Shown: positions 7,727 through 48,545 of the stretch, in pieces
How positions within the stretch are numbered: position 1 is the stretch's first letter
Layout: each line of letters begins with the position of its first letter
Assembly: GCA_021735655.1 (NCBI GenBank)
Contig: JAIPGM010000002.1
Coordinates: 224,001 to 288,000, forward strand
Direction of reading: 5' to 3'
From: Candidatus Omnitrophota bacterium
Lineage (GTDB): Bacteria > Omnitrophota > Gorgyraeia > Duberdicusellales > 4484-171
DNA length: 64,000 nt
The notes under the pieces: model-generated
The model's input: only the letters and a program-made list of their open reading frames with translations
What the model was told of the DNA's origin: nothing
Database searches by the model: none
Translations under genes and position numbers: made by a program

Positions 7727-8267
7727 GTTAAGGCCAGGAATGGCTATTATTTATAACGATCAGCTTTATTTATTAATTAACTGCGAGCACACCAAAATTG
7801 CTAGAGGCCCGGCCTTCTGTCGAGCAAGGTTAAGAAATTTAAAAACTGATCAGGTGCTTGAGCGAACTTTGCGTGATTCTGACAATGTTGAACCGGCTTT
7901 TATTGAAAAACGTAAACTTCAATATCAGTACCATCAAGACGACCAGTACCACTTTATGGACTTAGAAACCTATGAAGATCTTTTATTGCATAAATCGCGA
8001 ATTGCCGATAAATCTTTTTGGCTAGTAGACAACCTGGAGCTGGTCGGTCTTTTTTACGATAATAAACTTATTGATTTAGAATTTCCGCCTTCTTTAATAT
8101 TTAAAGTTACTGAAACTGATCCTGGATTTAGAGGCGATACAGTTAAACAAGGCACTAAGCCGGCAACACTTGAAACCGGATTGGTTATTAATGTGCCGAA
8201 TTTCATAAATAGCGGTGAAAATATTAGGGTGAATACAAAAACTAAGGATTATTTGGGCCGAGCATAA
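7713..8267 (+). CDS. efp: Elongation factor P
   Basis: LLINCEHTKIARGPAFCRARLRNLKTDQ matches the EF-P KPGKG-loop region, and the protein has the three-domain EF-P length. Confidence 0.85.
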   Translation: MVIGELRPGMAIIYNDQLYLLINCEHTKIARGPAFCRARLRNLKTDQVLERTLRDSDNVEPAFIEKRKLQYQYHQDDQYHFMDLETYEDLLLHKSRIADKSFWLVDNLELVGLFYDNKLIDLEFPPSLIFKVTETDPGFRGDTVKQGTKPATLETGLVINVPNFINSGENIRVNTKTKDYLGRA

Positions 8268-8278
8268 AGGGGGCAAAT

Positions 8279-8698
8279 ATGGAAGTTGAAAAACTAAAAA
8301 AGTTTATAGAATTCATGGATCAGAATAATCTCGCCGAGTTAGAAATTGAGGAAGGAGACAAACGCATTCGTTTAAAACGAAACATTTCCAGTGCCCCGGT
8401 TGCAAATTATCATCCGATAATCCCGACGCCTGAAGTTGCTGGCTCTAAAAACGAAAATACTGTTGAGATAAAGTCACCAATGGTAGGAACATTCTATCGA
8501 GCTCCTTCACCAGGAGCAAAACCTTATGCCGAGGTTGGGCAAATTATTAAACCTGGAGACGTGGTTTGCATTGTTGAGGCGATGAAGCTCATGAATGAGA
8601 TTAAAGCTGAAGTTGGCGGCAAGATTGTTCAAGTTCCGGTTGAAAACGGCGAACCAGTTGAGTTTGGTCAAAGTCTATTTATAATCGAAGCGGCATAA
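8279..8698 (+). CDS. accB: Acetyl-CoA carboxylase biotin carboxyl carrier protein
   Basis: The biotinylation motif CIVEAMKLMNEI (EAMKL) is present in a C-terminal lipoyl-like domain. Confidence 0.85.
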   Translation: MEVEKLKKFIEFMDQNNLAELEIEEGDKRIRLKRNISSAPVANYHPIIPTPEVAGSKNENTVEIKSPMVGTFYRAPSPGAKPYAEVGQIIKPGDVVCIVEAMKLMNEIKAEVGGKIVQVPVENGEPVEFGQSLFIIEAA

Positions 8699-35119: not shown

Positions 35120-36358
35120 TTAGGGCATCTTACGAATAGCTTCGACCCGTTTCAATACCGGCGGATGACTATAATCCAAAAATACCTTTAATCGATGCGG
35201 GCTTAAATTAGAAAGATTGTTTACAGTGAGCTTTTTAAGCGCCGAGATAAAGGCCTCCGGATTTTGATAGGTCCTTACCGCATAGCGATCAGCTTCATAT
35301 TCATGTTTTCGCGAAAGCAAATTACCGAATATTGAAAAAATAAAACTAATTGGTGTATAAAGGAAGCTAAAGAATATAAGCCCAGCGTAAACTGATATTT
35401 CATCCATTCTAAAAGCATTGAATAGCCCAGGATTTTTTATAAAAAATGAAAGCAGGTAAAACATCAGACCTTTAGTTAATGCTGAGAGTAAAAGACGTTT
35501 TATAATATGTTTCTTTTTATAGTGGCCAACTTCATGTGCTAAAACAGAAACAATTTCTTCAGTAGTGTGTTTTTGAATTAAAGTGTCAAATAAAGCAATC
35601 CGACGAGATTTGCCTAAACCAGTAAAAAAAGCGTTAGACTTACTTGACCGACGCGACCCATCAATTTTAAAAATACCCTTTATCTTGAACTTTTGCGAAT
35701 TAGCATAATCGCTAACCGCCTTTTTAAGCTCCCCATCTTCTAAGGGGGTAAATTTGTTAAAAAGCGGTAAAATTAACACCGGAGCAATAAAAATAAAAAA
35801 AGTACTTAAGAGAACCGTAGCCAACCAACACCAAAGCCAAGCTCCCTGATCGCTAAACTCGACAAAAAGACGTACAATTAAATAGAAAGCCGGACCGGCA
35901 ATAATTACCAACAATATCCAGTTTTTAATTAGATCAGTAATAAAAGTTTTTACGGTAGTTTTATTGAATCCATACTTCTCTTCAATAACAAAGGTCTGAT
36001 AAATAGAAAAAGGTATCTCAATAATTTGAAGTCCGAAAACAATAATTCCGGCAAAAATTAAACCGCTAAACTCAATATTTGAGCTCAAATCTCGGGAGAT
36101 TCGGTCAACTAAATTGAATCCTCCGCTTAGAATAAAAATGATAACAACTGTCGTAAAGACGGTTTTTTGAATAAGACTAAAGTAAGTATTTTCTTTAAGG
36201 TATTTTTGCGAACGACTATAGTCCTCAGGATTATAATAACCTTCAAATTCTGCAGGTAGACTAAAACCAACTGAGGAAATATTTAACATCTCTACGGTCA
36301 CCCGCAAGACATACTCGCCGATTAAAATAGCTAAAATAATAACTAAATAAGGATTCAT
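35120..36358 (-). CDS. M48 family (Ste24/HtpX-like) integral membrane zinc metalloprotease
   Basis: Multiple TM helices are present, together with the HEVGHYKKKH (HExxH) motif and a downstream Glu-containing segment. Confidence 0.75.
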   Translation of the reverse strand: MNPYLVIILAILIGEYVLRVTVEMLNISSVGFSLPAEFEGYYNPEDYSRSQKYLKENTYFSLIQKTVFTTVVIIFILSGGFNLVDRISRDLSSNIEFSGLIFAGIIVFGLQIIEIPFSIYQTFVIEEKYGFNKTTVKTFITDLIKNWILLVIIAGPAFYLIVRLFVEFSDQGAWLWCWLATVLLSTFFIFIAPVLILPLFNKFTPLEDGELKKAVSDYANSQKFKIKGIFKIDGSRRSSKSNAFFTGLGKSRRIALFDTLIQKHTTEEIVSVLAHEVGHYKKKHIIKRLLLSALTKGLMFYLLSFFIKNPGLFNAFRMDEISVYAGLIFFSFLYTPISFIFSIFGNLLSRKHEYEADRYAVRTYQNPEAFISALKKLTVNNLSNLSPHRLKVFLDYSHPPVLKRVEAIRKMP

Positions 36359-36396: not shown

Positions 36397-36590
36397 AAAA
36401 AAACCGACAAGGGCTTCACGGTGTGTCTACCGGCAACTCAGCCACCATCATAGTCTAAGGCTCATACTCGCAAAGTTGGGGAGCGTTGCGTTTTAGGAGA
36501 GCTTGCGAATCATCTCGCCCAAGAACTATCTTAGGTCTGTCAGTTTTGCGCCCCTTACTTTCGTAAGGTTTGCCCTTATCGGCACCTTAA
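36397..36590 (-). ncRNA. Candidate c-di-GMP-I (GEMM) riboswitch with U7-terminated expression platform, upstream of M48 protease gene
   Basis: The minus-strand RNA reads GAUAAGGGCAAACCUUACGAAAGUAAGGGGCGCAAAACUGACAGACCUAAGAUAG. For comparison, the Vc2-type aptamer reads CAGGGCAAACCAUUCGAAAGAGUGGGACGCAAAGCC..GGCCUAAACC. The 3-prime segment GAAGCCCUUGUCGG plus U7 is complementary to the aptamer's 5-prime strand CCGAUAAGGGC. Confidence 0.45.
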
Positions 36591-36649: not shown

Positions 36650-37708
36650 TTACTTTGTCAGATGAACAGTCTGAGTAGGAAAAGCAAATTCAATCTTTTT
36701 CTTCTCAAATTCACCCTTAATGCCCAGGTTTATCTCTTGTTGAATATCCATATATTTATTATAATCACTGCTAAGCACGTAATAGACTACCTCAAAAATA
36801 AGATTAAACTCACCATAAGAAAAGAAATGAGCTCGATCCAAAGTGGCACCCTCAACACCTTCAATTATCTCCCCAATAATCTTAGGTATTTCTTTTAACT
36901 TAGAAAGAGATGTGTCATAAGTAGTACCCAGCTGAAACATCACTCTTCGTTTCTGCATTCGCTTATAATTACGTAAGCGAGAATCCGTCAAATCAGAGTT
37001 AGAAAAAACTAGCTGTTCGCCGCCTAAACTGCGAATTCGAGTAGTTTTAATTCCAATGTTTTCTACTGTTCCCAAAAGATCGCCAACAATAACAAAATCG
37101 CCAACTTCAAAGGGACGGTCAAAAATAATTGAAAAATAACTAAATAAATCCTTTAGAACTGCTTGGGCAGCCAAAGCAATGGCTACACCACCAATACCCA
37201 ACCCGGCAATAACCGTTGATATTTTAAAACCTAAGTTGTCTAAATAGAAAATAATAGCCAGGGCCCAAATAATAAACTTAGTAACCCTCAAAACACCCTC
37301 TAGACTATTCTTTAAAGTTTCACTGCGCCTAGACTTTCGCCAATAAACATCTAAACTATAGGTAATTATACGAATCAATAAACGGACCGTAAAAAAAGTT
37401 ATTAGCGCCATCACTAGAACGCCTAGGCCGCGATTAACCTGTTCACTTAAGGTCAAGGTTTTAAGACTTAAGTAGAAGGCCGCAAGGTAAAAAATCGGAA
37501 TAGCTATTTTCTCAATAATTTCAGCTAAGAAATCATCAATACTAGTAAGCGTCTTTGCAGCTAAACTTCTGAGTTTTTTTAAAATGATGAGCTCGAATAT
37601 CTTTATTACAACACAAGCTAACAGGAATGCACCAATATGAACAATATAATCCTGTAATGAGTTGCCAAGTATAATGTACTCTGAAAATTCTTGCATAGTT
37701 ACCCCCAA
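36650..37708 (-). CDS. Mechanosensitive ion channel family protein (MscS-like)
   Basis: N-terminal TM helices precede an MscS beta-domain region, FEVGDFVIVGDLLGTVENIGIKTTRIRSLGGEQLVFSNSDL. Confidence 0.8.
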   Translation of the reverse strand: MGVTMQEFSEYIILGNSLQDYIVHIGAFLLACVVIKIFELIILKKLRSLAAKTLTSIDDFLAEIIEKIAIPIFYLAAFYLSLKTLTLSEQVNRGLGVLVMALITFFTVRLLIRIITYSLDVYWRKSRRSETLKNSLEGVLRVTKFIIWALAIIFYLDNLGFKISTVIAGLGIGGVAIALAAQAVLKDLFSYFSIIFDRPFEVGDFVIVGDLLGTVENIGIKTTRIRSLGGEQLVFSNSDLTDSRLRNYKRMQKRRVMFQLGTTYDTSLSKLKEIPKIIGEIIEGVEGATLDRAHFFSYGEFNLIFEVVYYVLSSDYNKYMDIQQEINLGIKGEFEKKKIEFAFPTQTVHLTK

Positions 37709-37727: not shown

Positions 37728-38921
37728 TTAATTTTCCGAAATCGAATACCGAACTTTAGATTTTTGTATTTCCAAAGTGCTAGCCAGTTCGGTTTCAGTT
37801 ACAAACCCGAGTTCTTTTAAAATTTCTCCAAGCATAATTCCTCTTTTCCAATGAATTAAAAGAGCTTCATCGAGCTGATTTTGAGAAATTGCCTTTCGTT
37901 CAATTAATATCTGACCTAAAGGTTTATCATTGGTTGTCTTTCGATGATAGATTTCCGGTGTTGCGTCTTTATTTGTTTTGGTGTCACGACGATCAACCAT
38001 AAATTTGCTCTCAGGGATAGTTTTGAGGTAACGCTTTATTTCGGTAACTTTTTCATTAAGCTGAATCATATTTTCGATACCAGAAGTGTACTCTCGATTG
38101 ACTACGGCAATCGAAATTGTCATCAAAGGTGTATTTGTTAATTTACGAGTTCGATCGCGATTAACCACAAAACCTTGGTTGCGATCTATTTCAGAGTAAT
38201 GAAAAGGAATAATCGTATCGAAACTTTTAATAAAATTGTGGCATATTTGTGCGTATTTATCCATGGTGCTGATAAAAACAAAATCATCTCCTCCAATATG
38301 ACCGATAAAATCATCAGAATTTCCGAATTTTTTTACCGCGTCAATTAACAAGTGAGTTGTATGAAGAATTACTCCGTCACCTTTACGGTAGCCATAGACA
38401 TCATTGAAAGATTTAAAATTATCAATATCTAAATAAGCAAATGAAAATGGTTTTCCAGTTTTAAACTTTTCATTTAAGGCATCCTCAAATATTTTAGCAC
38501 CAGGAAGACCAGTTAAGGAACTCGCATAAATACTGTGTTGGGCGCGTCTTGCAGCCATTTCAATTCGAATACGTAAATCAAGCGGGTCTGGTGGTTTTAT
38601 CAAATAATCATCGACTCCTTGCTTTAGACTTAATAATTGAGCGCGTAATTGCCGCTTATTGATTAAAGTTATGACCGGAGTAAAAGCAGTGGCAAAATTT
38701 TCTTTTAAAAGCCGACACATGGCTAATTGTTCTTTACGGGCTGATTGAATATCAATGACTATGACATCAGGGGAAATTCTTTTTATTTTTTCGATATCTT
38801 GCGGTTGAGTAAATTCACGTAGGAAAACTTCGTATCCCCAACCGTCAAAACAAAAGCGCAGAACCTCTTTTAATTGACTATCCGAAGAGATAATTAAAAT
38901 TTTATGTATAGTATCAATCAT
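37728..38921 (-). CDS. Response-regulator receiver, GGDEF-like (GGDDF) domain, and C-terminal T2SSE_N/MshEN-like domain
   Basis: The N-terminus has REC features, and the GGDEF-like site reads IGHIGGDDFVFI. The C-terminus GQILIERKAISQNQLDEALLIHWKRGIMLGEILKELGFVTETELASTLEIQ has the GspE-N/MshEN pattern. Confidence 0.6.
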   Translation of the reverse strand: MIDTIHKILIISSDSQLKEVLRFCFDGWGYEVFLREFTQPQDIEKIKRISPDVIVIDIQSARKEQLAMCRLLKENFATAFTPVITLINKRQLRAQLLSLKQGVDDYLIKPPDPLDLRIRIEMAARRAQHSIYASSLTGLPGAKIFEDALNEKFKTGKPFSFAYLDIDNFKSFNDVYGYRKGDGVILHTTHLLIDAVKKFGNSDDFIGHIGGDDFVFISTMDKYAQICHNFIKSFDTIIPFHYSEIDRNQGFVVNRDRTRKLTNTPLMTISIAVVNREYTSGIENMIQLNEKVTEIKRYLKTIPESKFMVDRRDTKTNKDATPEIYHRKTTNDKPLGQILIERKAISQNQLDEALLIHWKRGIMLGEILKELGFVTETELASTLEIQKSKVRYSISEN

Positions 38922-38929
38922 TTAAACTA

Positions 38930-41900
38930 TTATACCACTTTCTTCTGTTCCTCAATTATTTTTTGGGCTATTTCCTTTGGTACCTGGGTGTACTTTTTAA
39001 AATGCATTGAGCAACTTGCCCGGCCACTAGATAAAGACCTAAGATTGGTTACGTAACCAAACATTTCCGAAAGTGGAGCCTCAGCCGAAATTAGCTTTTG
39101 GTTACCTTTTGAATCCATACCTAAAATTTTCCCCCGACGCGCACAAAGATAACCAACAATACCACTAGTATGCTCTTCTGGAGTAAGTACTTCCAAGCTC
39201 ATGCAAGGCTCAAGAAGAACCGGACTCGCTTTTAAAAAAGCGTTTTTAAAGCAAGTTCTTGCAGCAATTTTAAACGCTAACTCTGAAGAATCAACTTCAT
39301 GGTATGAACCATCAACGAGCTTTACCTTAACATCGACCACCGGATAACCGGCATAAGAACCTTTTTTCATTGCTTCAATAATACCTTTCTCAACTGCCGG
39401 TATATAGTTTTTAGGTATTGCTCCACCTTTAATGCTATCTTTAAATTCAAAACCAGCAGCTTCTTCATTAGGAGAAAGCTCAATCGCTACGTGGCCGTAT
39501 TGGCCTCTGCCTCCGCTTTGCTTAGCATGTTTATACTCTTCGCTAGTAGACTGAAGGATTGTTTCTTTATAGGCAACTTTAGGCTGACCGGCCTGCGCTG
39601 AAACCTTAAATTCTTCCTTCAAACGTTCAACGATTATTTCAAGATGTAATTCTCCCATACCAGAAAGAATTGTTTCAGAGGTTTCCTCGTCGGTATGAGC
39701 GTTAAAAGTGGGGTCTTCTTCTGCTAGTTTAGCTAAACCCTTGGCCATCCTATCCTGATCGGAACGACTCTCCGGTTTTATGCTGATTGAAACGACTGGC
39801 TCAGAAAATTCAATTGACTCAAGTAATATTGGATTTTGAATGTCAGAGAGTGTATCGCCGGTTAAAGTGGAACTGAGACCGACAATTGCCGCAATATCAC
39901 CGGCAAACACTGCGTCAACATTTTCTCGTTGGTTAGCATGCATTCGAACAATTCTCCCGATACGCTCTTTTTTATTTTTAGTTGCATTTAAAACATAAGT
40001 TCCGGCCCTTAAGCATCCCGAATAGATTCGAGCATAGATCAATTTACCTACATGCTGGTCAGCTTGGACCTTAAAAGCAAGCGCTGAAAAAAATTCATCA
40101 TCTTGAGGCTTACGTTCCAAGCTTTTTTCTTTATCATCGGGGTCAGAACCAATAACTGGCGGAATTTCAGCCGGAGAAGGTAGATAGGCAACAACTGCAT
40201 CAAGCAAGTCTTGAACACCCTTATTTTTTAATGCTGACCCGCAAAAAACCGGAACAATCTTATTTGAAACTGTAGCTTTGCGCAAAGCCTCAGTCAGATC
40301 GTCTTTGCTGATTGACTCCTCTGACTGTAAGTATTTTTCCATTAATTTACCATCATAAGAGGCTACCCGATCAACCAAACTATGGCGGTATCTTTGAGCG
40401 ATTTCTTTATAGCTTTCATGAATATCTTCCGACCTAATATCTTTGCCTAAGGATTCGTCATTATAAAGATGCATTTTCATATTAATAAGATCAATTATGC
40501 CTTTAAAGTCACCTTCCTTACCGATCGGTATCTGTAAGGCAACTGGTTTAGCCCCAATAGTATTTTCGATCTCTTCTAAAACCTTAAAAAAATCAGCCCC
40601 GACCCGATCCATTTTATTTATAAAGGCTATCTTCGGTACATGATATTTATCCGATTGGCGCCATACGGTTTCAGTTTGAGACTCTACTCCTCCCACCGCA
40701 CAAAATACAGCAACTGCCCCATCTAGGACCCTTAACGATCTTTCAACTTCAGCGGTAAAATCAACGTGGCCGGGGGTATCAATAATAGTAATTTGGCAAT
40801 CTTTCCAACTACAAGTGGTTGCAGCTGAAGTTATAGTTATACCTCTTTCCTGTTCTTGTTTCATCCAATCCATCTGAGCTGCCCCGTCATGAACTTCGCC
40901 GATTTTGTGCGACCGGCCGGTATAGAAAAGAACTCTTTCAGTAAGAGTAGTTTTCCCAGCATCAATATGGGCCATAATCCCAATATTACGGATCTTGCCC
41001 AGTTCTATTTTTCTCTCCGGCAGTGGCTCCTCTACTTTTTTTACTGCTTCAGGCTTAGGCTCGGCTTGTATTTCTGGTTCTTGAGCCGATAGCTCCGGAG
41101 TCACTTCTTCACTTGCGGTTTCAGGTTGCCCTTGGGTCAAATCTTTAGTTTCACCTTCCTGCCCTTGGATTAAAGATTCGTCTTCCTTTAGCGATTCTTT
41201 ATCTGAAGGTAACTCTTCAAATTCCTTAGTTTCTGAAATAGGTTCACTTGGCTGCGCCTGAACTAACTCATTCTCAAGATTGGAAGATTCTTTTTGAGAA
41301 TCACCGTCCTCAATTAAAAGAATATCTGCTAACTCATCGTCCTTAATAACGCCGCTTCGTTTAATCTCGCGTAATTTATTAAGAATACGAATCCGCTCCT
41401 GATCAATTTTTTCGATATCTTTACCTTTTAGCTCCAACTCCTTAGATTTAATCTCTAACTCATTTTTTAATTCTTCACTTTGTTCTTCTAAAAGAGAGTA
41501 CTCTTCTTTAGATACCCATTCGCTTTGACGTTGTTTTTCTTTCATTTGAGCAACTTCAGCAGCATGTGCGACAGTTTCTTTAGATAGCTGGTGCATTCTT
41601 TGAGTCTGATCTTTTAGCTCACTTTCCAAAGAAATAATCTTATCTTTCAATTGATTGATATTGACTTCACGAATTTTGATTACTTCTTCAGCTTGATCAA
41701 GTTCTTTTTTAAACTGCACACTCCGGGAAAACTCTTTCTCTAAATCCTTTTCCTTAGTAATCAATTTAACTCTCAAAGCCTCATAGGGACCTTTTCCTTT
41801 TTTCAAAGTAAGCTGCTGACTATTAAGCCATTTTTTATTGCGGTTAATTTCCTCGCCCAATTCTTTAGCCTTGAGGCTAAGCTTTTGATGCTCATCTTGC

Positions 41901-42139
41901 AAGCTGAGATACTCAGCCTGAGTTTTTGTTAAGGCGACAATTTCATTTTTTAATTTTGTTAGTTCCCTTTTTGAAGATTTAAGGTTTTCTGACAAGGCAG
42001 AAATTTTTTGTTGTTGCAAGTCAGGCTTAAGGCCAAACTTTGTACCCAGAGTACCTTTTAAAACTGAATCATCTTCGTTGTTAACTAAATACAGTACTAG
42101 GGCAATCGATACTCCAATTACAACAAAAATTAAAGTCAT
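38930..42139 (-). CDS. Elongation factor G paralog with ~370-aa N-terminal extension (TM helix, coiled coil, acidic linker)
   Basis: Residues ~375-1069 form a complete EF-G: [15 protein letters not shown] (G1), DTPGHVDF (G3, catalytic His retained), NKMD (G4), a G-prime insert, and domains II-V. The N-terminus [19 protein letters not shown] is hydrophobic. Residues ~40-260 are heptad-rich and K/E-rich, and residues 270-370 form an E/P/Q-rich linker. No ATG/GTG/TTG lies near the junction. Confidence 0.8.
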
Positions 42140-42210
42140 ATTAAAATTATATCATATCTTTGCTATAAACAAAGACTTGAGAGTTAAAATATGCGTGCTA
42201 TAATAAGACC

Positions 42211-42658: not shown

Positions 42659-42982
42659 TTACCACTCTCCAGACCATTCAACATCGCCACTTTTGCCTAT
42701 GTCTTGAAAAAGCTCCTGAATGAATTCAATAATTGGATGAGTGTTTTTTTGAGCGGCCTTTTTAATTAGATTTTCTAAACGTTGAGGTTTTTCTATTTCC
42801 TCACTAACTTTATCAAAATTAAAATCAACTTCCTTGTCAAAATAGTTTTCTAGATCTTTCATGAAAATTTTTGAATTGTAGTTTTGACGATAATCAGCTA
42901 ACCTAGTTATTTTCTCAGCTCTTTGACGACGAAAAGATTCAAGTCTAGGATCCTCTTTTTCGGGCCTTTTTGAATCACTCAT
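42659..42982 (-). CDS. Hypothetical protein
   Basis: Only the ORF itself is seen. Confidence 0.3.
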   Translation of the reverse strand: MSDSKRPEKEDPRLESFRRQRAEKITRLADYRQNYNSKIFMKDLENYFDKEVDFNFDKVSEEIEKPQRLENLIKKAAQKNTHPIIEFIQELFQDIGKSGDVEWSGEW

Positions 42983-46230: not shown

Positions 46231-48201
46231 CTAAAAGCTTACTTTACAACCGGCAAAGAAGTTTCTTTCTGGAGAAGGATAAAGTCCTCGCGTGGTACCG
46301 GTAAGATTAGTTGCAGCGTACTCACTGTAAAGTTCGTTAAATAAATTATTAACACCGGCAAAAAGCTCTAACTTTTTTCCGGTATAACTTAATTTTATAT
46401 TAGTTGTGTTGTAACTTTTTAACTTAGGGCTGATATTATTAAGATCATTAATTAAATAAACTTTATCTCGATAAAGATAATCAGCAAAAAATGAAAAGCG
46501 TTCAAAAAAATCATATTTTACCGAAGCTGTAAGCATAGCCTTAGGAACGAAAGGAACTTCCTTTCCAGCGTAAACACCGCCACGGAATTTCGCATCGATA
46601 AAGCGATAGCCGAGAGTAAACTTTGTATTGTCAAATGGGGTAAGGGTTGTAGTGAGATTCGCACCTTGACGACGAATTTTACTATAATTTTCGTTAGCGA
46701 ACGTCCCTGGGTTGTAGTATATTTCGTTATTAACATTCATTTGAAAATAATCCAAAGATGTGGTTAAAAAGTCAGTTAAACGCATATTGGCCCCCAAACT
46801 TATAGTTTTAGAACGTTGTGGTTTTAAATTTGTATTAATTGCTGCAGCCGGCCAAGTAACTAAGTATTCATCGGTCTTACCGACCCTCAAACCTCGCGAA
46901 AAATTAAGATAAATATTACTTTCGTTATCGATTTTATAGTTAAGTCCAGTTTCATACAAGCCTTCTCGAAAATTCAATCCATCATCAGTGCTTGTAGAAC
47001 CAAAATAATCAAAAGTAAACTTTTCTTTTTGCACCCTAGCCCCTAAATGCCCAGCAAGTTTTTCATTAAAGCTAATTTCATCCTGTAAAAACCAAGCTAG
47101 GCTCTGTCGATCAATGTCAGTAGCCGCGCTTGAGGTATCAGCTGATAAATCCGAACTATAAAATTCAAATCCGGCAATTAGCTCTTGTTGAATTCCTCTA
47201 GTATCAAAAGACAATAATAGTTGTGGCCGCGCTTGAAAATTAGTTATATGTTTGTCAGTAGACATGCTATAAGAAAGTAAATCCTCCAACTCATTTCGGT
47301 TACGATAAAATAAATCAACTGAAGCAATCAGCTCAGGTGAAAACTCGTTTTTAATAGTTAAGCCTAAAGTATTATCCTCTCGTTGATAGTTATTTAAAGG
47401 AGTTGTTGAGTCACGACGTGAAGTTCCAGCTAACCGTTCAGCTTCGGTTATATCATCTGGCAATCCATAGATATATTCGTGATGAGTCAAGTCAGCACTT
47501 ATCTCTAACTGTTCGGTAGGCCTAGAGTTTAGTTCTATTGAGCTGTATTTTGAGCGGTAATGACTATTTTGACGATAACCACTTGTTGAATGGTACTCAG
47601 AAAATGTGCGAAACGATAAAAGGTCTTCTCCACCTGAGGCTGAAATAGACTCTTTGGTCGAGCGGTAACTTCCGGCTTCAAAGTTAACTTCAACTGAAAG
47701 ATCCTTAGCTTGAGGATCTTTTGAAATAATATTAACTATTCCTCCGGCAGCACCCTCTCCATACAGGACAACTCCGCCACCCCGGATTACTTCTATTCGT
47801 TCAACATTTTTTAAGGGCAACTCAGTCCAGTTAACTCCGCTCATATCGATTTCATTAATTTTTCGACCATTCACTAAAACCAGCATGTTTGATGCAGCAT
47901 TATCACCAAAACCCATCATATCAACAGTTGTCTTAACGTTAGTTCCGTAATAATCGCTGACGTGTAACGACGGAACATTTCTTAAGAAATCAATTACTGT
48001 GCTTGATCCGCTAGCCTTGATATGTTTCTCGGTATATACTTTGGTCGCATAAGGAGTTTCAGAAATTGTTGTTTCTTCTACTCCGGCATAAGGAGTTACT
48101 ACTATTTGCTCTAAATCTATTTGTCCTTGCGCCAACAAAGGACTTAATGATCCAAATTGAATAGTCAAAAATAATATTAAAAATACAAAACACCTTTTCA
48201 T
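46231..48201 (-). CDS. TonB-dependent outer-membrane receptor (BtuB-like)
   Basis: A signal peptide MKRCFVFLILFLTIQFG is followed by plug and barrel domains, and the protein ends with a terminal Phe. The start was corrected to the ATG at 48199-48201, preceded by the RBS aaaggaggggg. The track start at 48267 lies inside the riboswitch terminator. Confidence 0.8.
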   Translation of the reverse strand: MKRCFVFLILFLTIQFGSLSPLLAQGQIDLEQIVVTPYAGVEETTISETPYATKVYTEKHIKASGSSTVIDFLRNVPSLHVSDYYGTNVKTTVDMMGFGDNAASNMLVLVNGRKINEIDMSGVNWTELPLKNVERIEVIRGGGVVLYGEGAAGGIVNIISKDPQAKDLSVEVNFEAGSYRSTKESISASGGEDLLSFRTFSEYHSTSGYRQNSHYRSKYSSIELNSRPTEQLEISADLTHHEYIYGLPDDITEAERLAGTSRRDSTTPLNNYQREDNTLGLTIKNEFSPELIASVDLFYRNRNELEDLLSYSMSTDKHITNFQARPQLLLSFDTRGIQQELIAGFEFYSSDLSADTSSAATDIDRQSLAWFLQDEISFNEKLAGHLGARVQKEKFTFDYFGSTSTDDGLNFREGLYETGLNYKIDNESNIYLNFSRGLRVGKTDEYLVTWPAAAINTNLKPQRSKTISLGANMRLTDFLTTSLDYFQMNVNNEIYYNPGTFANENYSKIRRQGANLTTTLTPFDNTKFTLGYRFIDAKFRGGVYAGKEVPFVPKAMLTASVKYDFFERFSFFADYLYRDKVYLINDLNNISPKLKSYNTTNIKLSYTGKKLELFAGVNNLFNELYSEYAATNLTGTTRGLYPSPERNFFAGCKVSF

Positions 48202-48239
48202 ACTACCCCCTCCTTTAAAACTAATCTTAAAATAAAAAA

Positions 48240-48545
48240 ACCCTATACCTTCTGGTATAGGGTGCACCCTGATTTACTTGGCCCTAAAATAAAAAAATTC
48301 AGGTAATGTTTCCACGCAAAACCTAAACTTTGCTTCTTACGGCAGGTCTTCTGACTTCCCTACATCTTTTAGCTACCTTCCCACCTGCATTTTAAAACAG
48401 ATAGTGGTTTAAATCGCTAAAAGGGCCCTAAAATTATCTCTAGGGGTCGGGATCACAGCACCGGGAGTGTCTCCGATTCTCACGGAGTTCCCTATTAAGC
48501 TCCTTTTGAGCACCGTAAAATTAGCTACTTTTATACAAAGAACAT
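48240..48545 (-). promoter_or_regulatory. Cobalamin (B12) riboswitch with intrinsic-terminator expression platform
   Basis: The minus-strand RNA reads UUAAUAGGGAACUCCGUGAGAAUCGGAGACACUCCCGGUGCUGUGAUCCC ... GGUGGGAAGG ... AGUCAGAAGACCUGCC, where the last element is the B12 box (plus 48341-48356). The terminator CCCUAUACC-AGAA-GGUAUAGGG plus U7 follows (plus 48232-48263). Confidence 0.85.

Follow-up and report, generated by a model that had tools for sequence, protein, structure and literature searches.

This work examines a 64,000-nucleotide stretch of DNA from a Candidatus Omnitrophota bacterium (GenBank assembly GCA_021735655.1, contig JAIPGM010000002.1, positions 224,001 to 288,000; referred to here as the window), which carries an unusual gene for translation elongation factor G (EF-G). 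On the minus strand, a single uninterrupted open reading frame (ORF) with an ATG start encodes a protein of 1,069 amino acids (aa), followed by a stop codon, in which a complete EF-G is preceded by a hydrophobic helix, a predicted coiled-coil stalk, and an acidic linker. We refer to this protein and its relatives as long EF-G. An initial annotation, made from the letters of the DNA and without database searches, had described it as an EF-G paralog fused to a membrane-anchored, coiled-coil extension. The analysis reported here finds membrane-anchored EF-G well supported as an architecture on sequence grounds, with its function predicted. The coordinates of all features are collected in Table 1.

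EF-G body and N-terminal extension

The EF-G portion was assessed by profile searches, domain motifs, and structure prediction. As the initial annotation had proposed, the 1,069-aa protein was searched for domains; the five EF-G domains were all matched above their Pfam cutoffs between aa 382 and 1060 (GTP_EFTU, aa 382 to 655; EF-G_D2, 684 to 766; EFG_III, 778 to 851; EFG_IV, 853 to 972; EFG_C, 974 to 1060), while aa 1 to 375 gave no Pfam match of any family. The NCBIfam EF-G equivalog model, TIGR00484, scored 1,051.7 bits against a cutoff of 659.4, with aa 376 to 1066 corresponding to profile positions 3-690/691. Models for other factors fell below their cutoffs: EF-G2 (NF009377 and NF058620; 513.1 versus 890 and 506.1 versus 1,000), tetracycline ribosomal protection (NF012153; 412.5 versus 775), and likewise RF3, LepA, and BipA. 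The closest PDB match of the EF-G part is EF-G of Thermus thermophilus (867 bits), followed by that of Escherichia coli (851), with Thermus EF-G-2 at 390. In an alignment of 53 long homologs, the G1 (AHIDAGKT, aa 390 to 397), G3 (DTPGH, aa 454 to 458, including the catalytic His458), and G4 (NKMD, aa 508 to 511) motifs are invariant; the GTPase motifs [17 protein letters not shown] share this invariance with the domain IV motifs GGxGQY.H and H.VDSS, which read GGRGQYGH and YHEVDSS at the domain IV tip of the window protein. AlphaFold2 (AF2) predicts a folded EF-G from about aa 379 onward at a predicted local distance difference test (pLDDT) score of 80 to 94. The earlier description of a complete EF-G with intact G1, G3, and G4 motifs and catalytic His is thus borne out, and all of the sequence tests place the EF-G part in the canonical family.

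For the extension, AF2 run with an alignment places a helix at aa 2 to 20, disorder at aa 21 to 40, and three helices at about aa 41 to 115, 118 to 206, and 211 to 261; aa 262 to 369 have no predicted secondary structure and a pLDDT of ∼27 to 43. The first helix of the window protein has a mean Kyte-Doolittle hydrophobicity of 2.79 over 19 residues. Values above 2 were obtained for nearly all full-length long homologs, and the few relatives without a hydrophobic start have visibly truncated starts. Across 138 long forms, an average of 0.02 Lys/Arg residues precedes the helix (a median of 1 residue in length), versus 4.9 in the 20 aa that follow it. This positive-inside charge pattern indicates that the stalk, the linker, and the EF-G moiety would lie in the cytoplasm. 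Neither the charged n-region nor the lipobox of cleavable signal peptides was found at the long-form N termini. Long EF-G is therefore supported as a predicted single-pass signal-anchor membrane protein with a cytoplasmic EF-G part; the term "membrane-anchored" in the initial annotation draws its support from helix hydrophobicity and the positive-inside pattern, both read from sequence.

The stalk has the periodicity expected of a coiled coil. Its three helices show hydrophobic periods of 3.45 to 3.55 residues, with the observed power reached by only 2, 0, and 7 of 1,000 shuffles, respectively. Within the extension, whose length ranges from 302 to 406 aa across the family, W104 and V141 are invariant in long forms and K129, L133, F137, W208, and L217 are conserved in at least 90% of them. 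The conserved stalk residues fall into three motifs, NKKW(L/V), KEKxLExEFSKNV, and [13 protein letters not shown], and the helix breaks coincide with a conserved G116-P117 pair and the SEWV motif (aa 206 to 210). From the positions of these breaks and of the conserved residues, we infer that the helices at aa 41 to 115 and 118 to 206 form an antiparallel hairpin with W104 near K129/L133 at a conserved tip, and that the second Trp motif would return close to the membrane. The linker comprises 110 aa with a net charge of −24 in the window; across homologs, it spans 39 to 138 aa with 27% Glu, 12% Lys, and 11.5% Pro and a net charge that is always negative (−2 to −33). No known fold was recovered for the extension: a profile search against PDB sequences returned generic coiled coils only, and a Foldseek comparison of the AF2 model with the PDB gave no match. 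In all, the initially described extension of ∼370 residues, with its hydrophobic helix, heptad-like stretch, and acidic linker, agrees with the AF2 model, the periodicity, and the composition.

Table 1. Positions of long EF-G, its parts, and neighboring features within the window
Feature	Position	Strand	Basis
Long (predicted membrane-anchored) EF-G, whole gene	38930..42139	-	ORF list; homologs of 1000-1083 aa
N-terminal transmembrane helix, aa 2-21, signal-anchor, predicted N-out/C-in	42077..42136	-	Hydrophobicity, charge counts, AF2
Juxtamembrane segment, aa 22-40, predicted disordered, K/R-rich in homologs	42020..42076	-	pLDDT <50; charge counts
Coiled-coil stalk, aa 41-261, three predicted helices	41357..42019	-	AF2, heptad periodicity, conservation, dN/dS, hhalign
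Codon of W104	41828..41830	-	
Codon of W208	41516..41518	-	
Acidic E/P/K/Q-rich linker, aa 262-375, predicted disordered	41015..41356	-	AF2 pLDDT; composition
EF-G G domain including G', aa 382-655	40175..40996	-	Pfam GTP_EFTU E = 7.6e-69
EF-G domains II, III, IV, V, aa 684-1069	38933..40090	-	Pfam EF-G_D2, EFG_III, EFG_IV, EFG_C
Extended -10-like element TGaTATAAT, 6 nt before ATG of long EF-G	42146..42154	-	Read from sequence
TG-extended TATAAT of divergent YqeY gene, ending 6 nt before its ATG	42177..42204	+	
107-aa protein	42659..42982	-	No family match
REC - degenerate GGDEF (GGDDF) - MshEN-type cyclic di-GMP (c-di-GMP)-binding motif gene, 8 nt after EF-G stop	37728..38921	-	Pfam/NCBIfam
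MscS-like gene	36650..37708		
c-di-GMP-I riboswitch	36429..36584	-	Rfam RF01051, 60.8 bits vs gathering score 35
M48/HtpX-like membrane protease gene	35120..36358		
Cobalamin riboswitch	48324..48532	-	81.7 bits
678-aa ORF, TonB-dependent receptor	46231..48267		Synteny with L003 and L086

Conservation, origin, and paralogs of the long form

The same single-ORF layout recurs in other genomes, nearly all of them from Omnitrophota, and in >100 proteins with lengths of ∼1,000 to 1,083 aa. Among the best 120 database relatives of the window protein, 110 are 940 to 1,083 aa long, nearly all with a strongly hydrophobic N-terminal helix. A scan of one genome per species gave 79 loci with 49 distinct long genes, so that the N-terminal extension, which the initial annotation had suggested looking for in related genomes, is present in 49 genes of representative genomes. 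Their hosts are records labeled as Omnitrophota, or as Planctomycetia in automated bins; among them is Candidatus Susulua stagnicola, an Omnitrophota member in the NCBI taxonomy. For seven close ortholog pairs, the ratio of nonsynonymous to synonymous substitution rates (dN/dS) was 0.08 to 0.16 in the anchor and stalk, 0.18 to 0.43 in the linker, and 0.03 to 0.05 in EF-G, which indicates that translation of the extension, and selective constraint on it, begin with the first codon.

An alternative explanation is that the long frame is an artifact, produced either by a sequencing error that merged two genes or by a start called too far upstream. The public records would favor such a view: the window gene is deposited as an 871-aa protein starting at Met199 (MCF7907706.1, "elongation factor G [Candidatus Omnitrophica bacterium]"), and its ortholog on the complete chromosome CP070797 (locus L086, 10001..12394) is deposited as 797 aa instead of 1,051. 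Against this view stand an unbroken frame in 49 independent genomes and >100 metagenome proteins, purifying selection at the protein level from residue 1, retention of a hydrophobic helix at the extreme N terminus, and, for 27 of 48 orthologs, a Shine-Dalgarno-like motif 5 to 12 nt ahead of the anchor ATG. The probability of an artifact of assembly or annotation is negligible, and we regard it as excluded for practical purposes; the initial judgment that the fusion is genuine stands on these same data. Because the NCBI starts lie too far downstream, the anchor and most of the stalk are absent from the deposited proteins. As an annotation lesson, model-guided start calling shortens long EF-G genes and hides the anchor in those records.

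Also in agreement with the initial annotation, no start codon lies near the junction between the linker and EF-G. The nearest in-frame ATG, GTG, or TTG upstream of the RNIGI motif is a GTG 38 codons away, and the next downstream is the Met of GIMAH. Among the 49 long genes, no conserved in-frame start occurs at codons −13 to −8 before RNIGI, and the start codons that do occur at the junction are sporadic and out of register; internal initiation of a free EF-G as a conserved feature was therefore rejected. At the other end of the gene, the −10-like element TGaTATAAT before the anchor ATG is found at the identical distance in the closest ortholog (L005), and a consensus promoter scan called no full −35/−10 pair before long EF-G. 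The position of this element in the window and in its closest relative suggests a possible leaderless transcript. The divergent YqeY gene has a similarly placed TG-extended TATAAT, neither gene has a Shine-Dalgarno motif, and long EF-G and YqeY may be a pair of leaderless transcripts.

The origin of the extension was addressed with a profile of aa 1 to 262, which was searched against 1.84 billion representative proteins and returned 258 matches at an E value of ≤1e-10. The top matches are N-terminal pieces of long EF-G genes that are interrupted by a contig end. Next in rank comes a coherent stand-alone family, with members ∼220 to 235 aa in length (e.g., P0203, P0213, and P0273), matched by hmmsearch at E values of 1e-18 to 1e-25 and by hhalign with 99.9% probability (E = 8.3e-31) over 220 columns in which the motifs align. 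These proteins have the same N-terminal transmembrane helix, the same helices, both Trp motifs, and an E(F/H)S motif (EFS or EHS), with 22% identity to the extension in the two loci examined; they differ in having neither linker nor EF-G and in their genomic context. In those two loci, the stand-alone gene is flanked by TPR and flavodoxin-like genes rather than by EF-G, and the neighboring proteins are 43 to 55% identical to Omnitrophota proteins. Pfam contains no family for these ∼230-aa coiled-coil proteins. Such end-to-end homology points to origin by fusion and not to a merged annotation; on this evidence, the long gene arose by joining a preexisting membrane coiled-coil module to a duplicated EF-G. 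The initial annotation had also considered that the N-terminal region might match an independent gene upstream of EF-G in related genomes. No such arrangement was seen, the stand-alone homologs being distant and, in the two loci examined, located elsewhere.

Weaker, partial matches to the extension profile include three proteins (P0207, P0201, and P0266) in which a related anchor and repeated coiled-coil segments are joined to MshEN and PilZ c-di-GMP-binding domains. Membrane coiled-coil modules of this kind appear to be combined with more than one type of cargo domain. In locus L022, a membrane coiled-coil ORF of 198 aa close to the short EF-G matched the profile at an E value of 2e-16 without the Trp motifs and was set aside as generic similarity.

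At least nine genomes encode a free EF-G in addition to the long one. These short forms comprise ∼694 to 702 aa (∼698 aa in genomes with both) and begin with M-x-R-x-I/V-x-L-x-K-V-RNIGI. In five genomes, the long and short genes are on different contigs (L006/L020, L009/L015, L010/L024, L011/L047, and L013/L048), and in four they are in tandem (L014, also represented by L086 on the complete chromosome CP070797; L023; L038; and L059). Candidatus Susulua stagnicola carries both forms (long, L012; short, P0285). The metagenome-assembled genome (MAG) to which the window belongs probably has a free EF-G as well, to judge from accession proximity: MCF7908053.1, which lies 347 accession numbers from MCF7907706.1, is a 698-aa EF-G with 68% identity to the EF-G part of the window protein and a TIGR00484 score of 1,089.5 bits. 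The label "paralog" in the initial annotation is accordingly appropriate for the nine genomes and probably for this MAG.

In a neighbor-joining tree, rooted at its midpoint with no outgroup, the short forms cluster together, including Auribacterota sequences, and the long forms stand apart. Comparison of eight genomes with both forms showed the long moiety to be the more diverged one in 28 of 28 pairs (mean identity, 72.3% versus 78.5%), with long and short distances tracking each other across these pairs. This pattern points to a duplication of long standing, after which both copies were inherited vertically and the long copy evolved somewhat faster. The G' subdomain (aa 528 to 628) is the least conserved part of the EF-G moiety in long forms and is less conserved there than in short forms. 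Only two residues are diagnostic of long versus short forms (R579 versus His and K1009 versus Gln), too few for functional divergence of the EF-G body to be inferred from them.

Gene conversion between the paralogs was noted as well. In assembly CAZAYU01, the long L013 and the short L048 are 100% identical over the first ∼300 EF-G residues (the G domain and G') and ∼70% identical thereafter; L003/L001 also show conversion, and L011/L047 show a milder pattern. Omnitrophota-type EF-G contigs were further found in bins labeled "Methanosarcinales archaeon" (L011 and L047; JAIWAR01) and "Spirochaetes bacterium" (L040; JAFGFC01), labels that likely reflect misbinning or mislabeling.

Genomic neighborhood

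The long EF-G gene lies outside an rpsL-rpsG-fusA-tuf context, as initially annotated: the entire 64-kb window lacks signatures of S7, S12, and EF-Tu, and none of these genes adjoins EF-G in any of the 79 loci, long or short. The initial annotation had also placed EF-G 8 nt downstream of a REC-GGDDF-MshEN signaling gene. The 8-nt gap is correct and the order is the reverse, EF-G lying upstream of that gene on the coding strand. A REC-GGDDF-MshEN gene, always with GGDDF, directly follows long EF-G in nine loci of the window's clade (L005, L006, L008 to L012, the window itself, and L007, where it is cut by the contig end) and is absent elsewhere. It is probably an operon partner of long EF-G within this clade only, and so it says little on the function of the long EF-G family. 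No family-wide operon partner was found: the set of YqeY, 107-aa protein, and REC-GGDDF-MshEN is clade specific, and other clades have different neighbors. The 107-aa protein and the divergent YqeY flank long EF-G in the window, whereas in L022 (107-aa counterpart at 8091..8378) they flank the short form, a hint that the two paralogs once sat adjacent to each other.

Riboswitches were detected in the window as well. The c-di-GMP-I riboswitch sits between the MscS-like gene and the M48/HtpX-like membrane protease gene. Its position two genes downstream of REC-GGDDF-MshEN indicates that c-di-GMP signaling parts cluster here. The cobalamin riboswitch is upstream of the 678-aa ORF, which synteny with L003 and L086 identifies as a TonB-dependent receptor beside a FecCD/ABC uptake system.

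Predicted role and alternative readings

In many respects, long EF-G resembles canonical EF-G (FusA; structures 1dar and 4v7d), with which it shares all five domains and the GTPase and domain IV tip motifs. It differs in its N-terminal extension of ∼375 aa, in its location outside the str operon, and in its coexistence with a free EF-G relative to which it evolves somewhat faster, especially in G'. A second EF-G kept beside a main one, which implies a division of labor, is also found in the cases of Thermus EF-G-2, Bacteroides EF-G2, spirochete and mitochondrial EF-G1/EF-G2, and Pseudomonas EF-G1A/1B. In these known specialized paralogs, which are soluble, it is the factor body that differs, whereas long EF-G has a nearly unchanged body and its novelty resides in the membrane anchor. 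RNase Y and EzrA have a short external N terminus, one transmembrane helix, a cytoplasmic coiled coil, and then a working domain. Long EF-G follows the same design logic with a translation factor as its cargo and shows no sequence relationship to either protein (neither family is matched by Pfam in aa 1 to 375). Translation-linked GTPases at the membrane are also known: FtsY has an acidic disordered N-terminal A domain before its signal recognition particle (SRP)-receptor GTPase, and LepA/EF4 is reported to be membrane associated. The extension of long EF-G has no sequence similarity to FtsY. In well-studied cases, both are peripheral or reversibly membrane bound; long EF-G differs from them in its predicted integral helix and in being the translocase itself. 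Full-text literature searches, which cannot prove that none exists, turned up no published account of an EF-G with a membrane anchor or an N-terminal extension, in this phylum or in any other organism, consistent with the initial statement that membrane tethering is not a described EF-G architecture, and EF-G is unmentioned in the main Omnitrophota genomics paper.

From sequence, we infer both the membrane localization of long EF-G and any specialized role. The reading that we favor, with a little better than even confidence, is that long EF-G is a second, catalytically competent EF-G that would act as an integral membrane protein serving membrane-proximal ribosomes while the free paralog serves the rest. 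Such a protein would have originated by EF-G duplication and fusion in an ancestor of the sampled Omnitrophota lineages and would have been inherited vertically beside the free EF-G. Its 20-residue signal-anchor helix would sit in the cytoplasmic membrane and leave hardly any residues exposed outside, and a ∼220-aa coiled-coil stalk facing the cytoplasm would be followed by an acidic, proline-rich leash of 40 to 140 aa bearing the five-domain EF-G. The tethered EF-G would still cycle on ribosomes, acting in translocation, recycling, or both, and the tether would raise the EF-G concentration within a few tens of nanometers of the membrane, thereby helping cotranslational insertion or secretion. 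Estimated from helix lengths, a hairpin stalk of ∼11 to 13 nm together with a leash of up to tens of nanometers could reach the factor site of a membrane-docked ribosome. N-terminally tagged EF-G is in routine use. The PDB also contains L9-EF-G chimeras, with EF-G at residues 75 to 757, in ribosome crystal structures, which argues that N-terminal fusions to EF-G are compatible with ribosome binding.

Several points weigh against this reading. No neighbor conserved across the family ties it to Sec, YidC, or SRP. The G' subdomain of known EF-G contacts L7/L12, and low G' conservation in the long forms could mean altered ribosome recruitment. Proteolytic release within the linker is possible. Omnitrophota are reported to have ultra-small cells (PMC10066038), so that a leash of tens of nanometers would span much of the cytoplasm and any spatial specialization may be weak. 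Finally, according to a preprint (10.64898/2026.06.07.730766), certain Omnitrophota chromosomes carry S12-S7-EF-G-EF-Tu operons; a third EF-G is therefore possible, and the division of labor may be more complex.

Alternatively, long EF-G might be a noncycling factor that tethers or parks ribosomes at the membrane, for hibernation, storage, or localization, or that acts as a regulatory sink. The faster evolution of the long moiety in all 28 comparisons and its relaxed G' region would be expected if fast factor cycling matters less, and the occurrence of the module alone or joined to MshEN-PilZ suggests a scaffold with exchangeable cargo. However, GTP hydrolysis and translocation depend on catalytic and domain IV residues that are all invariant here, the low dN/dS of the EF-G part is hard to square with a mere binding handle, and the two forms are told apart by only two residues; we consider a parking function unlikely. 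A related idea is that the long protein is a precursor from which a protease cut in the linker frees an ordinary EF-G and leaves a membrane coiled-coil protein of ∼230 to 300 aa, comparable to a member of the stand-alone family; the fusion would then serve to secure coexpression or delivery to the membrane. The stand-alone family does stop shortly after the second Trp motif, near the linker start, the disordered linker would be accessible, and the third gene downstream of EF-G, both in the window and in L003, encodes a membrane M48 protease. Since no conserved cleavage motif was found in a linker that varies in length and sequence, since a free EF-G is already separately encoded and would make a released copy redundant, and since the M48 linkage is not family-wide, we rate such processing as distinctly unlikely.

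In its succession of anchor, long helix, E/P/K-rich spacer, and globular C-terminal domain, long EF-G also resembles TolA and TonB, and the Glu, Lys, and Pro content of the linker would suit a periplasm-spanning protein with its C-terminal domain outside the cytoplasm. The charge pattern is the opposite of what this topology calls for, with practically no Lys/Arg before the helix, the C-terminal domain is a GTPase conserved in full and dependent on GTP and ribosomes, and no Pfam match to TolA or TonB was obtained. Such a topology is highly improbable.

Returning to the favored reading of a catalytically competent EF-G at the membrane, a bolder form of it holds that Omnitrophota keep two EF-G pools, one free and one integral to the membrane, the latter driving translocation or recycling specifically on membrane-docked ribosomes. 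On the sequence data this is a tentative proposal, toward which we are somewhat more doubtful than inclined. If true, long EF-G would be the first example in bacteria of a core elongation factor that is part of the membrane and, by "Rosetta stone" logic, the stand-alone ∼230-aa family would be an unrecognized membrane partner of the translation machinery. EF-G is among the most conserved and best-studied proteins and is regarded as a cytosolic factor that diffuses freely. The finding ties an uncharacterized membrane coiled-coil family to the translation apparatus, and the tethered and free paralogs, with their almost identical catalytic bodies, constitute a natural experiment. A phylum-wide, membrane-wired EF-G would provide a direct handle on whether and how bacteria organize elongation in space, for example, at sites of membrane protein insertion.

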